A stretch of DNA of 64,000 nt from Bacillota bacterium (GCA_021783135.1 JAJXUE010000010.1:4115-68114); one strand, 5' to 3'. Positions 5,257-37,808 are shown, numbered from the stretch's first letter. A program made the numbers and translations. Notes: a model not told the origin generated them from the letters alone.

Positions 5257-5898
5257 ATGAGCCTTAATCCTGAATTCCAAAAGGCTATGCGCGGGTATCG
5301 CGTGGAAGAAGTAGATGAATTTGTTAATCAAATTTCAGCTGCTTATGAGCAAGTTAGACGTGAGCTATTAGTGGTGAAGGATGAAAACGCCAGACTTACC
5401 AAACAACTAGAATACTTCCAGGCCATAGAAAGTTCATTGAATAAAGCATTAGTAGCCGCCCAACAGAAGGCGGAAGAGATTGTGAATAATGCCCAGGATG
5501 AGGTTAATGGTTCTTTGATAGATTCGCGCGAGAGATTAACCAACATAAATACAGAAATTGCTCAAATTTTGGCTGGTGCAGCGGAAAAATCTCGTCAAAT
5601 TGAAGAAGAAGCACACCAGAAGGCAGAAGAGATATTATTACAAGTGCAGCAACAAGCTGGGGTACAAGCGGACAGGTATGCGCAGACCATGCAACGCGTG
5701 GTCGAAACCCGCCAGAGTTTAATTAGAACGCTGGGCGAGTTTGTGCAGCAATTGGACAGCATGGACAGCGGTGAGCTTGTTGCGGTCGCGGCAAGTGCTG
5801 ACAGCGGTTTAAGTGAAAGTTCTGAGGAACAGTCTGTTGTCGGGGAACAGTCTGCCACTGATGAAGCTGCCGCAACTGGCAGCGATAATAGCCGTTAG
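5257..5898 (+). CDS. divIVA: DivIVA-domain cell-division protein
   Basis: N-terminus MSLNPEFQKAMRGYRVEEVDEFVNQI matches the DivIVA lipid-binding domain and is followed by a long coiled coil. The start is uncertain; the track ORF begins at 5212. Confidence 0.75.
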   Translation: MSLNPEFQKAMRGYRVEEVDEFVNQISAAYEQVRRELLVVKDENARLTKQLEYFQAIESSLNKALVAAQQKAEEIVNNAQDEVNGSLIDSRERLTNINTEIAQILAGAAEKSRQIEEEAHQKAEEILLQVQQQAGVQADRYAQTMQRVVETRQSLIRTLGEFVQQLDSMDSGELVAVAASADSGLSESSEEQSVVGEQSATDEAAATGSDNSR

Positions 5899-34179: not shown

Positions 34180-34599
34180 ATGGACGTAACGCAAGAGACA
34201 TTGTACTTGCTGAAGGAAAAGGGAATACGGGTTACACCGCAGCGTCAAGCAATTCTAGAGTACCTTAAGCATGTAGATACCCACCCGAATGCCGAAGAAA
34301 TTTATGCGCATATTCGCACTAAATTTGCCGGTATCAGCTTAGGAACTATTTATAATAGTTTAAATATGCTGTGTGATAAAGGGTTGATCCAAGAACTTGC
34401 CTATGGGGATACCTTTAGCAGATTTGACGGTAATCCTATGCCGCATGATCATATTGTATGCGATGTTTGCCGCAAAGTTGTGGATTACCACGGACCGCTG
34501 TTAGATAACTTGCTGGACTTGGCCCAGCAGGAGTCGGGCTTTGCCATCAAAGGATATCGTTTGGAGCTGCATGGGGTTTGCCCTGCTTGTCAAAACTAG
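34180..34599 (+). CDS. Fur-family metalloregulator (PerR/Zur-like)
   Basis: wHTH RVTPQRQAILEYL, an HDH motif, and two CxxC pairs (CDVC, CPAC). Confidence 0.9.
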   Translation: MDVTQETLYLLKEKGIRVTPQRQAILEYLKHVDTHPNAEEIYAHIRTKFAGISLGTIYNSLNMLCDKGLIQELAYGDTFSRFDGNPMPHDHIVCDVCRKVVDYHGPLLDNLLDLAQQESGFAIKGYRLELHGVCPACQN

Positions 34600-34632
34600 C
34601 TGTGCTAGTAAAATACTCGCAATTGAGAATGT

Positions 34633-34660
34633 CCCTGTTGCTTGCAACAGGGTTTTTTTG
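34633..34660 (+). terminator. intrinsic terminator after the fur-family gene
   Basis: CCCTGTTGC-TT-GCAACAGGG followed by T7. Confidence 0.85.
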
Positions 34661-34718
34661 TACTAGCCTGAAACTAGCTTCGGGTCGCTGGGGTCGAGTT
34701 TATTTTCTGCTTCGTTTT

Positions 34719-34911
34719 GCAAACTGCATCGCCGAGCATACTATTCGGTTCGCTACCTCACTGCCGCAAACGTAGCCATAAATTGGGCGCGAGCATTAGT
34801 GCTCTCGTTCGGGCGCTCACCGAGTATGCTAACGGCGCTTCCGTAATGCTTCTCTGCGCAGAAAGTAAACTCACCCGTGAGGTAAGTGGCCTTTGTTGCG
34901 TTTTTTGGGTC
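34719..34911 (+). repeat. copy 1 of a tandem ~193-nt element (probable structured RNA or MITE-like unit)
   Basis: Hand alignment with 34912.. at a 193 nt offset. The core 34719-34877 differs from 34912-35070 at 11 positions with no indels. Confidence 0.9.
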
Positions 34912-35098
34912 GCAAACTGCATCGCCGAGCATACTTATCGGCTCGCTGCCTCACTTCCGCGAACGTAGCCATAAATGGGGCGCGAGCATACGTGCTCTCG
35001 TTCGGGCGCTTGCCGAGTATGCTAACGGCGCTTCCGTAATGCTTCTCTGCGCAGAAAGTAAACTCACCCTTTAGCTAAGCGACCTTTGATTCATTTTC
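34912..35098 (+). repeat. copy 2 of the tandem ~193-nt element
   Basis: See copy 1. The tail (35071-35098) is more diverged but still alignable (TAAG..CCTTTG..TTTT). Confidence 0.9.
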
Positions 35099-35253
35099 CA
35101 GTGGTGCTGCAAAGCGGCCTGGGGGTCTAGCTGTGCTTTGCTTGTTTACGTGATCACTTGGCTAGAGAGAAAAAGTTATGAGATTTCTCTTATGAGCTTT
35201 TGGTAGGCAGGGTTTTGTCGCAATATATCGAATCTTAATCGTTAAGTAAACTT

Positions 35254-35288
35254 AGAGGGCGGCAAACTGGGTGCCGCTCTCTTTTAAT
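35254..35288 (+). terminator. terminator-like hairpin 20 nt upstream of the start codon of the next gene (possible attenuator)
   Basis: 11 bp stem AGAGGGCGGCA / TGCCGCTCTCT (one G-U pair), 7 nt loop, then TTTAAT. Confidence 0.45.
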
Positions 35289-35303
35289 CATAGGGGTTTT
35301 AAT

Positions 35304-37589
35304 ATGATCTTGCGACGATACAGAACTTTGTTAGCAGTAATGGTGCTCTTCGCACTGGGAGTGGTGTTGGGGAGCGCAGTACCTTATATGGGCAATCCAC
35401 CGCTCGAAACTGGGGTGCCGCAAGGCAATGATGCAAGTTACCCACTGCAGTCACCAGACAGGGTTAAGCTTGACTTAAATGGAATGTGGTACAGTTATAG
35501 CTCTCTGGAGGCGGCGAGGTCTGCTAGGCCCGCAACCGGGCAAGTAGCACAAGGAAAAGTGTCCGCAAGCACAGCTGTACCTGTTCCTGGTAGTTGGTCT
35601 AATCCGGTCGCCGTAAAACAGTTTTATTTGAGCAATACTTTAGCAGGACGCACTTTTCGCTTGCAGTTCATGAGCTTCGGGAGTAATGTGCAAGTCTTTC
35701 TCAATGGATATACAGCAGTTGACAGTTTGGGACACTTTGCTGCCAGTAATGTGCCGGTCAGTGTGGTTGTTCCCAAGCCTCGCTTGAAATTTGGTCAGCT
35801 TAACACCCTTGCGGTTCAAATGGGGCAAACTCCGAGTGACGGGCCGTGGCTTGCTGCCCCCGGGTTAACCGGTGATGTTTACTTAGAAGGTTTAAATGAT
35901 ATAGTTTTAGCCGCACCGCAGATTACCACAGTGCTTAATGCCCGGGGAGCGTTAGTAAGTTACAACATTCCCTACCAACTTACGGAACCTGGGATCAAGT
36001 TGACGAGTCAAATCAGCTTGCTTGATACGACCGCGGCGACTATGGCGGGCACCACGGACCAAACGATGGTTGGCACAACCGGTCAGACTGTGACTTCCAC
36101 GACGAGCCAGACCATAGCCGCAGCAACTCAAACTTTCACAGGTAGTGGCGGGGGGGCAATAAACGGTAAATTTGTCATTACCAAGCCGCAGCTGTGGAGT
36201 TTGGCAGACCCCCATCTTTACAGGCTACATGTATCCTTAACAGCCGCCGACGGGGAGCGTGACTCGTACACTGTGCCACTTGGCATACGACAATTGGCGT
36301 GGCGTGGTACGCACTTGTGGTTAAATGGCACGGTTATTCAACCTAAAGTTGTGCGCCGGGTCAATGACGCACCCGGCAGCGGTGCGGCTGGTAACCCTGG
36401 GGCTATTAGTAAGGATTTGGCTTGGGCCAAGGTGCAGGGATACAATATTGTGCTCGTTCCAGATCATATGCCACAACCTTATATGTGGGATGCTGCCGAT
36501 CGGGACGGCCTCTTGCTGCTGTGTGCTTCCGGTAAAACGGCTTTATCCGGTAGGCAGCCCTTGCAGCAGGCACTGCGCGAACAGGCGAGAGTGCAGGCTC
36601 TATTTGGCTACCATCCGTCCTTTCTGGCTCAGGGTGTGGGGGATGCACTGGACCTGCAGGATGCAGGAGTAAAAGCATACATCCAACAGTCAGGGGCAGC
36701 TGGGACGGGTTTTTATACTGTTTTGGGTAACCCGAAGGAGATTATATTTACTAATGGCTGGAAGTTAGATGCACAAGCACCCTATTTGGCTGATTTTTTA
36801 ACTGCCAAGCTTTCTGTGCGCGGACGAGACTTTGTCACTAACCACCTTAACCCTGACGGAATCCTTGATCGACAACGTAACCCCAAAGAAGTACCCTCCA
36901 ACCAGGCTGCCGGAGCCCAATTCCCGCGCGGGTTATTTTGGCTCGTGGCAGCGGTAGCTGTAGTACTTTTGGTGCGCACTTGGGGCAGCGGCAATTTGCG
37001 CTATCCGGACTTGACGGTGATCAAACATAAACGTAAACTACGGCGCATTATAGGGCAACAATTTTTCTGGTATGTGTTGCGTTGGGCGGCCACTGCTTTG
37101 ATTGGGGCTCAGTTAGCTTATCAAGCGGTTGTCTGGCCCGAGGGAGCTTATCTGGTCGAACGCATGCCGGCAAATTCATTACAGGCTGCGATTTGGTATG
37201 GGGCAGCTCATCCGTTAGAATTGGCACTCGCGTTATTTGCGGTGGGGATAGCGATATCATGGCTACTGGCGTGGCCCTACGCCAAGACATTGCCGGATAA
37301 ACCGGGCGCGTTTGCGCTGTTATTATGGCTGGAGAAACGCAAACGTTGGTTACTGCCCGCGCTGGGACTGTGGATCTGGGGGGACTACGGTGGTCCCAAT
37401 TGGCCCTTTTGGCTTGCGTTGGGAAGTGGACTGGGCCTGAGTGCTTGGTTGACTGACCGAGATGTCCGAACAGCCGGGGGTAAAAGTTTAGGTGTGATAT
37501 ATTTAGGATGTGCGCTGACGTTAGGGATAAGCTTAATTGGATTTAATTGGGGCACCATTGTGTATCTGTATCACTGGCTAAAAGCATAG
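35304..37589 (+). CDS. membrane protein: N-terminal TM anchor, GH2-like (beta-galactosidase-type) sugar-binding and Ig-like domains, truncated barrel, C-terminal polytopic domain
   Basis: AGGGGT SD precedes ATG 35304. PQLWSLADPHLYRLHVSLTAADG...GIRQLAWRGTHLWLNGTV parallels LacZ [23 protein letters not shown]...GFREVRIENGLLLLNGKP (from memory). About 6 TM helices in the last 230 aa. Confidence 0.7.
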   Translation: MILRRYRTLLAVMVLFALGVVLGSAVPYMGNPPLETGVPQGNDASYPLQSPDRVKLDLNGMWYSYSSLEAARSARPATGQVAQGKVSASTAVPVPGSWSNPVAVKQFYLSNTLAGRTFRLQFMSFGSNVQVFLNGYTAVDSLGHFAASNVPVSVVVPKPRLKFGQLNTLAVQMGQTPSDGPWLAAPGLTGDVYLEGLNDIVLAAPQITTVLNARGALVSYNIPYQLTEPGIKLTSQISLLDTTAATMAGTTDQTMVGTTGQTVTSTTSQTIAAATQTFTGSGGGAINGKFVITKPQLWSLADPHLYRLHVSLTAADGERDSYTVPLGIRQLAWRGTHLWLNGTVIQPKVVRRVNDAPGSGAAGNPGAISKDLAWAKVQGYNIVLVPDHMPQPYMWDAADRDGLLLLCASGKTALSGRQPLQQALREQARVQALFGYHPSFLAQGVGDALDLQDAGVKAYIQQSGAAGTGFYTVLGNPKEIIFTNGWKLDAQAPYLADFLTAKLSVRGRDFVTNHLNPDGILDRQRNPKEVPSNQAAGAQFPRGLFWLVAAVAVVLLVRTWGSGNLRYPDLTVIKHKRKLRRIIGQQFFWYVLRWAATALIGAQLAYQAVVWPEGAYLVERMPANSLQAAIWYGAAHPLELALALFAVGIAISWLLAWPYAKTLPDKPGAFALLLWLEKRKRWLLPALGLWIWGDYGGPNWPFWLALGSGLGLSAWLTDRDVRTAGGKSLGVIYLGCALTLGISLIGFNWGTIVYLYHWLKA

Positions 37590-37700: not shown

Positions 37701-37808
37701 CTCTTATCAAGAGTGGCTGAGGGACTGGCCCAATGAAGCCCGGCAACCGGCAGGAGGACTGCAGTGGTGCCAACCTGCAAACCGTTTTATGGTTTGAAAG
37801 ATGAGAGA
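37701..37808 (+). promoter_or_regulatory. SAM-I (S-box) riboswitch aptamer
   Basis: CTCTTATCAAGAGTGGCTGAGGGACTGGCCCAATGAAGCCCGGCAACC...GGTGCCAACCTGC...AAGATGAGAG matches the S-box consensus almost position for position. Confidence 0.9.

Follow-up and report, generated by a model that had tools for sequence, protein, structure and literature searches.

The tandem array downstream of the fur-family gene in the window analysed here (the whole 64,000-nt stretch of DNA from a Bacillota bacterium) probably consists of two head-to-tail copies of a non-coding, highly palindromic, lineage-restricted interspersed repeat of the MITE/ERIC/BOX/bcr1 type, a reading to which we assign a probability of roughly 60%. 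It is based on the occurrence of the element at multiple loci, its modular build, its variable copy number and junctions, and the defective copies found elsewhere. A sequence-only reading had proposed an unclassified structured RNA; the array is indeed self-complementary and its arms covary, but it is also a multi-locus repeat with differing neighbours, mosaic junctions and defective copies. Objects of this kind are well known, and the element itself is new, because no described family matches it.

The direct repeat noted after fur was confirmed by TRF, which reported a 193-nt period at 34719–35088 (1.9 copies, 90% matches, score 628, no indels), and by a repeat search, in which the pair 34719–34904 / 34912–35097 (90% identity) was the sole pair of the element in the 64-kb window. 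Position-by-position comparison of core copy 1 with core copy 2 gave 11 substitutions and no indels, at exactly the positions first listed (34743, 34744, 34749, 34755, 34763, 34768, 34784, 34797, 34798, 34818 and 34819). The element is wider than first described: homology to other copies sets the limits of the array at 34663–35131 (~470 nt), with homology to copy 3 of contig L002 starting at 34663 and homology to L002 ending at 35131. The array begins 4 nt past the T-run of the terminator of the fur-family gene (34180–34599), and its GC content is 54% versus 39–40% in the flanking non-coding DNA. Because the arrays in the independent assemblies L001 and L123 are identical to that of the window, it is not an assembly artefact; the L002 array is 97.6% identical.

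Units measure ~190–275 nt and follow the module order left end, left arm, core, right arm and tail (Table 1). The left-end module is kept in L002 copy 3, with an altered hairpin loop, and in L127b, and the tail module is kept in L002 copy 2, L126 and L127a, where its hairpin survives through U.G / C-G changes. The inverted arms (15–20 nt) are subterminal, lying ~30 nt (left) and ~60 nt (right) inside the conserved ends. The junction between copies 1 and 2 lacks the 34 nt that hold a proper left arm, and the junctions in L006 and L002 are of other types, formed at short homologies. CTAG stands at both ends of the array (34663–66 and 35127–30) and a single CTAG joins two units in L002; it may belong to the element rather than represent a target-site duplication. 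The palindrome TCTGCGCAGA occurs in all copies, fragments included, and is absent elsewhere in the window and in the 128 fetched loci.

Table 1 Features of the array and its upstream boundary (window coordinates)
Feature	Position	Strand	Description
Intrinsic terminator of fur-family gene	34633–34659	+	Stem 34633–34652, 8 pairs, then TTTTTTT (terminator scan)
Left-end module	34663–34695	+	CTAG; hairpin CCTGAA (34667–72) / TTCGGG (34679–84); motifs GGGTC GC TGGGGTC
Left arm GAGTTTATTTTCTGC of long-range inverted repeat	34696–34710	+	Sole left arm of the window array
Core copy 1	34719–34877	+	Long helix 34730–34749 / 34819–34837, hairpin 34791–34804, right arm 34858–34872 (TRF and repeat search; MFE and consensus folds)
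Perfect 10-bp palindrome TCTGCGCAGA	34853–34862		Centre of the most conserved block TCCGTAATGCTTCTCTGCGCAGAAAG; second copy 35046–35055
Unit junction	34878–34911	+	Tail-like, weakly alignable to the left-arm region (alignments; comparison with L006 and L002 junctions)
Core copy 2	34912–35070	+	Right arm 35051–35065 (TRF, repeat search, alignment, arm-pattern search)
Tail module	35071–35131	+	Hairpin GCTGC-AAA-GCGGC (35106–35118); terminal GGGGGTCTAG (35121–35130)

The check for copies in related Peptococcaceae, suggested from the sequence alone, placed the element at five intergenic loci: downstream of fur, rimM, a lactamase_B gene and aspS, and upstream of yhbY. They are spread over two related sets of MAGs of uncultured Peptococcaceae. 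The window matches contig DAIBIE010000005.1 of MAG GCA_027420895.1, and a conspecific MAG is named 'Peptococcaceae bacterium'. Mistaken ORF calls led to the further copies (P0001 to L006; P0005 to L126; P0006 to L127 and L128). In GCA_028069455.1, which is of the same species as the window and whose fur locus is 99% identical, a further copy lies upstream of yhbY-nadD on contig L006, which begins inside an array and holds one full copy preceded by the tail of another. In the second set, which comprises MAGs and metagenomes, L126 carries a fragment downstream of rimM and upstream of the 6S RNA gene; blastn and nhmmer located a fragment at L127:4963–5047, between the lactamase_B gene and a radical-SAM gene; and a copy at L127:10047–10198 lies downstream of aspS at the contig end (L127, L128). 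All three second-set copies are fragments or deletion variants without an intact long helix: only the right ~100 nt are left in L126 and L127a, and in L127b the centre is deleted, including one strand of that helix.

The element points the same way as the flanking genes at each of the five loci. Its neighbours are unrelated housekeeping contexts with the element alone in common, and the next genes differ from locus to locus (GH2-like, M42 peptidase on the opposite strand, yhbY, 6S RNA, radical-SAM). Nor is it placed as a riboswitch or 5′ leader, since no consistent set of genes follows it and, at the loci with a known upstream gene, it starts 64–79 nt past the upstream stop codon. Copy number after fur is two in the window and three in L002 (ENA ERZ27236853). 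In L002 the third copy is followed by an M42 peptidase gene on the opposite strand, a gene absent from the 64-kb window, and comparison of L002:3953–6420 with the window from 35131 onward showed that synteny is lost exactly at the end of the array. The same sample also gives a contig that begins in copy 2 and continues into the downstream gene of the window; judged from these contigs, the L002 arrangement could reflect a true rearrangement at the repeat or chimerism of the metagenome contig. Copy 2 of L002 / L003 looks recombinant, its left part resembling window copy 2 and its right part the L006 type, and the family as a whole appears mosaic. Nine contigs end in or at the element (L003, L004, L005, L006, L123, L124, L125, L127 and L128).

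Fold stability resides in the full unit. Cores alone (150 nt) were no more stable than dinucleotide shuffles, with z scores of −0.85 to −1.14 on either strand, and full units with arms gave −2.87 (window copy 1), −2.96 (L006) and −2.99 (L006, reverse strand). The palindromic architecture is thus significant, but with equal stability on both strands it carries no strand information. The long helix CGCCG-AGCATACT...AGTATGCT-AA-CGGCG and the hairpin GAGCA-TTAG-TGCTC, both predicted earlier, are found in the MFE and the consensus fold. The proposed helix CAAACG/CGTTCG is absent from the + strand MFE and from the consensus, as is a local hairpin that had been called switch-like and that comprises only 3 bp.

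The 15-nt left arm was found, as first described, to be complementary to the ends of both copies (34858–72 and 35051–65), the arm pattern giving three matches versus 0.02 expected. Four copies hold both arms. In window copy 1, GAGTTTATTTTCTGC faces GCAGAAAGTAAACTC with one G.T, and in L006 GAGTTTGCTTTCTGC faces GCAGAAAGTAAACTC, again with one G.T; pairing is perfect in L002 copy 3 (GAGTTTGCTTTCTGC with GCAGAAAGCAAACTC) and in L127b (GAATTTTCTTTCTGC with GCAGAAAGAAAATTC). Left and right arms covary in L002 copy 3, L006 and L127b, at two positions (A-U / G-C / U-A and G-C / A-U), so that the set comprises three mutually complementary versions and two G.T intermediates. Both non-canonical pairs are G.U on the + strand (2/2; p = 0.25 by our own estimate, not significant). 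In this comparison the arm helix is the best evidence for pairing under selection; the same covariation would be expected of inverted repeats bound by one protein.

In the interior there is one compensated pair, 34749/34819, besides one uncompensated G-to-T change in the long helix (L002 copy 3) and several A.C mismatches, and the fold differs between copies. The RNAalifold covariation term was −0.16 for the unit alignment. For the right module, which alone is conserved in both genome sets, it was +1.4 and no consensus fold was supported. Paired cells amounted to 97.6%, with four pairs changed on both sides, a number reached in 6 of 500 shuffles in a test where related sequences can beat shuffles even without structure. 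The earlier statement that copy-to-copy differences preserve pairing stood under the consensus fold, in which 8 of the 11 core differences are unpaired, two form the compensated pair and one is a mismatch (binomial p ~0.03, our own estimate, for a structure derived from those same sequences), but not under an independent structure, the MFE of L006 alone, whose loops hold no excess of variable columns (p = 0.51). Because the 10-bp palindrome leaves no room for a loop, a double-stranded DNA site would suit it better than an RNA hairpin, and by its sequence the surrounding block TCCGTAATGCTTCTCTGCGCAGAAAG would fit a recognition site in double-stranded DNA no less well than an RNA element.

Rfam gave no match at the gathering score that would account for the array in the whole window, and in the region 34550–35350 nothing overlapped the array at E up to 10, only weak unrelated matches outside the repeat being found; this agrees with the first impression that no known riboswitch or sRNA class applies. 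No Rfam family lies on the element copies in L002, L006, L126 or L127. Among phages and plasmids, blastn found no relative (one 40-nt chance match), and two exact-pattern scans of viral contigs gave no match. Peptide-derived degenerate patterns found no copy in 185,579 species genomes (one per species) and none in JGI metagenomes, where the 18-mer GTGCTCTCGTTCGGGCGC gave 98 matches, all by chance inside high-GC coding genes. The best relative of the window Fur in the 185,579-species collection is 42% identical, and hence the source lineage is not represented there. Within the 64-kb window, nhmmer with a unit profile detected no further or diverged copy. No transposase, and no parent IS sharing the ends of the element, was found in the window or the fetched loci; no integrase or recombinase gene adjoins any copy, and neither a complete solitary copy nor an empty site was seen among the assemblies compared. 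A literature search found no described Peptococcaceae MITE.

The coding alternative, already raised with the sequence-only reading, posits a tandem-duplicated small protein gene of ~55–83 aa in a + frame (..QTASPSIL..EYANGASVMLLCAESKLT..). The frame is open in both copies and was called three times in public data (P0001, P0005 and P0006), but the core is open in three of its six frames, codon positions 1, 2 and 3 take 4, 2 and 5 of the 11 differences, 6 of 53 residues are altered between the copies, and changes in the conserved block between the two genome sets are mostly non-synonymous. By eye there is no SD or ATG upstream of the + frame, as had been remarked; the array contains no Pfam family, and gene callers leave the stretch from fur to its next neighbour empty in assemblies with the whole array. 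When 1.84 billion representative proteins were searched exhaustively with a profile, those three called ORFs alone matched, two cut at contig ends and one on a truncated copy, and among 15 billion proteins all matching ORFs are partial, at contig ends or on fragments. Word-index protein searches, run with the + frame, with one − frame and with a profile, recovered P0001, P0002, P0005 and P0006 only; P0003 and P0004, from the exhaustive search, were discarded as relatives, being translated low-complexity tandem repeats. Judging by these sequences we reject the coding reading as very improbable.

P0001 and P0002 are listed by NCBI as 'hypothetical protein, partial' (loci M0Z55_04755 and M0Z55_04265). 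They are the repeat translated on opposite strands and called at contig ends, and from this they are very probably not genes.

In the main alternative, the array would be two paralogous genes of a functional multi-copy structured ncRNA family (sRNA or 3′-UTR module) on the + strand, the arms serving as a 5′–3′ clamp. We regard this as a tentative possibility. It would account for the covarying arm helix with its two G.U pairs, the compensated interior pair, the surviving tail hairpin, the paired-cell and shuffle figures, the orientation shared with genes at every locus and the GC content above that of the flanks. It fits less well with the + strand scan, which showed no promoter-like site in or before the array, and with the position of the array behind a strong terminator; the opposite strand folds equally well, the covariation term is just −0.16 and turns positive for the cross-species right module, the interior fold is inconsistent, a change in the long helix of one copy is uncompensated, all second-set copies lack that helix, loops of the independent structure are not enriched for variable sites, and the most conserved block is a loopless palindrome. 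A related idea, which we think unlikely, combines mobility with function: the element would be a functional mobile RNA module of ~200–270 nt, clamped by the covarying 5′–3′ helix, that takes up sites shortly after genes, oriented as they are, and works within the transcript, perhaps as a 3′-end stabiliser, a terminator or a source of 3′-UTR-derived sRNAs. The invariant TCTGCGCAGA block would then be the recognition site of a trans-acting protein. More speculatively, spread could be of a retro type, copying from the 3′ end, which is conceivable because all three second-set copies (two 5′ truncations and one internal deletion) keep the 3′ part.

An origin confined to the fur locus, as a minisatellite, a recombination scar, or an att site or junction of an integrated element, with the other loci arising by segmental duplication, seems improbable to us. 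Copy number does vary, synteny in L002 breaks directly after the array and unit junctions lie at short homologies; yet five unrelated contexts share the element alone, neither integrase nor recombinase stands next to any copy, and copies occur in two diverged genome sets. The interspersed-repeat reading has counter-points of its own: no parent IS was found, the arms are subterminal, the 64-kb window holds one array only, the contig breaks are also explicable by the tandem structure itself, and co-orientation at five of five loci together with covarying arms is equally expected of a functional RNA. Several other candidates were rejected. The array lacks the RYYYAAC / GTTRRRY ends of an integron attC; a DGR TR/VR pair would differ at the adenines of one copy only, whereas the differences here are mixed (among them A>T, T>A, T>C, G>T and C>T), and the called neighbours include no RT; a retron likewise has no RT. 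A type I toxin–antitoxin tandem repeat was discarded because no frame gives a hydrophobic peptide with its own start, and a Fur-regulated tandem sRNA pair because the element also occurs away from fur.

Intergenic repeats often lie at gene 3′ ends and can fold into stable structures, BOX forming tandem arrays and bcr1 showing compensatory changes that maintain pairing (PMC3184786). In description the element resembles bcr1, an intergenic Firmicutes repeat of ~150–200 nt from the Bacillus cereus group with a stable fold and compensatory changes, whose genomic distribution is not conserved between strains (PMC3184786). It differs in that bcr1 has flanking 5-bp direct repeats and known transcription, neither of which is established here, and is a two-hairpin cruciform, whereas our element forms tandem arrays and has a nested fold that the long-range helix of the arms closes. 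BOX of Streptococcus pneumoniae is likewise modular and intergenic, with tandem modules in variable number and predicted structures that suggest a role at the RNA level (PMC3184786). BOX belongs to another host lineage, with no evidence of sequence relatedness to the element described here. BOX modules are also much shorter. ERIC (RU-1) is a ~127-bp enterobacterial imperfect palindrome that is intergenic, often at gene 3′ ends and co-transcribed, with chance open frames (PMC3184786; PMC2759123). ERIC comes from a different phylum, our element is ~2x longer, and an effect on mRNA decay is experimentally documented for ERIC only.

The MITE-like alternative put forward from the sequence alone proved closest to the evidence, except that the 15-bp arms it took as terminal are subterminal. 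MITEs such as Correia/nemis, RUP and Nezha are small, without transposase, have inverted repeats around a core, and are intergenic, multi-copy and able to fold into a long stem (PMC3184786). Our element is small (<~400 bp; unit ~193–275 nt), has no transposase gene, only short chance ORFs and no Pfam match, and exists in multiple dispersed intergenic copies (five loci, two genome sets). On present evidence it is not a canonical MITE: its arms are not terminal, a target-site duplication is unproven and a cognate (parent) IS was not found.

For the interspersed repeat we propose that the element spread as a non-autonomous MITE/ERIC/BOX/bcr1-like element, with the inverted arms and the conserved palindromic block as the parts recognised in trans. 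The tandem pair would have arisen by unequal recombination or slippage between units, the junction of copies 1 and 2 losing 34 nt, including an arm. Pairing may be preserved as the hairpin or inverted-repeat architecture needed for persistence of the element, which could take effect at the level of single-stranded DNA, through symmetric binding sites for a protein or in a co-transcribed RNA hairpin. The likeliest host effect, if any, would be that of a 3′-proximal RNA stem on termination or mRNA stability, by analogy with ERIC and REP-type repeats and not documented for the element itself.

For annotation, the 470-nt stretch should be labelled a repeat element and not a riboswitch, sRNA or hypothetical protein. 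The element marks a breakpoint of metagenome assemblies in its lineage and possibly a point of genome rearrangement. If transcribed and acting in cis on neighbouring mRNAs, it would be a Peptococcaceae example beside ERIC, REP, BOX and bcr1, the few bacterial repeats with effects at the RNA level; for the present, it is an object of an ordinary kind from a poorly sampled lineage.

Several further features were seen around the copies. Another family of small repeats, whose members form a GC-rich, terminator-like hairpin (GAAAAGCGCGC ... GCGCGCTTTTC) with the conserved loop motif AGAGGAAA, occurs at L002:4179–4235, L006:6352–6408 and L126 ~5605–5660 (89% identity between L002 and L006 over 57 nt); its members follow leuS, the third element copy in L002 and the 6S RNA gene. 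That 6S RNA gene (112.6 bits) lies at L126:5342–5519 (+), ~170 nt downstream of the element fragment, which is itself preceded by an inverted tail hairpin (ATGCCGC-TGG-GCGGCAT), and a T-box leader stands upstream of hisS at L127:6645–6869 (+). GGAGTC-containing short direct and inverted repeats, CAGGAGTCAGAA ... TTCTGACTCCTG, are found just 5′ of copies (L127:9975–10045; L126:4985–5040) and resemble the right end of the element itself, GGGAGTCTGAATTC.

In the window, a promoter-like TTGTCA-16-TAAAAT (10/12) at 34587–34614 (+) overlaps the fur stop codon; a transcript from it would meet the fur terminator at once. Downstream of the array, a terminator-like hairpin, GAGGGCGGC / GCCGCTCTC followed by TTTT, occupies 35255–35285 (+) and could be the end of a transcript coming from the array or an attenuator; a weak L20_leader match (16.9 bits) is merely this hairpin. 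It ends ~7 nt before the RBS AGGGG (35292–96) of a 772-aa GH2-like membrane protein, for which ATG 35304 is the likelier start, because the mechanical ORF start, GTG 35271, falls inside the hairpin. After this 772-aa gene, a SAM riboswitch (RF00162, 86.9 bits) at 37701–37807 (+) lies directly upstream of a homoserine dehydrogenase gene.
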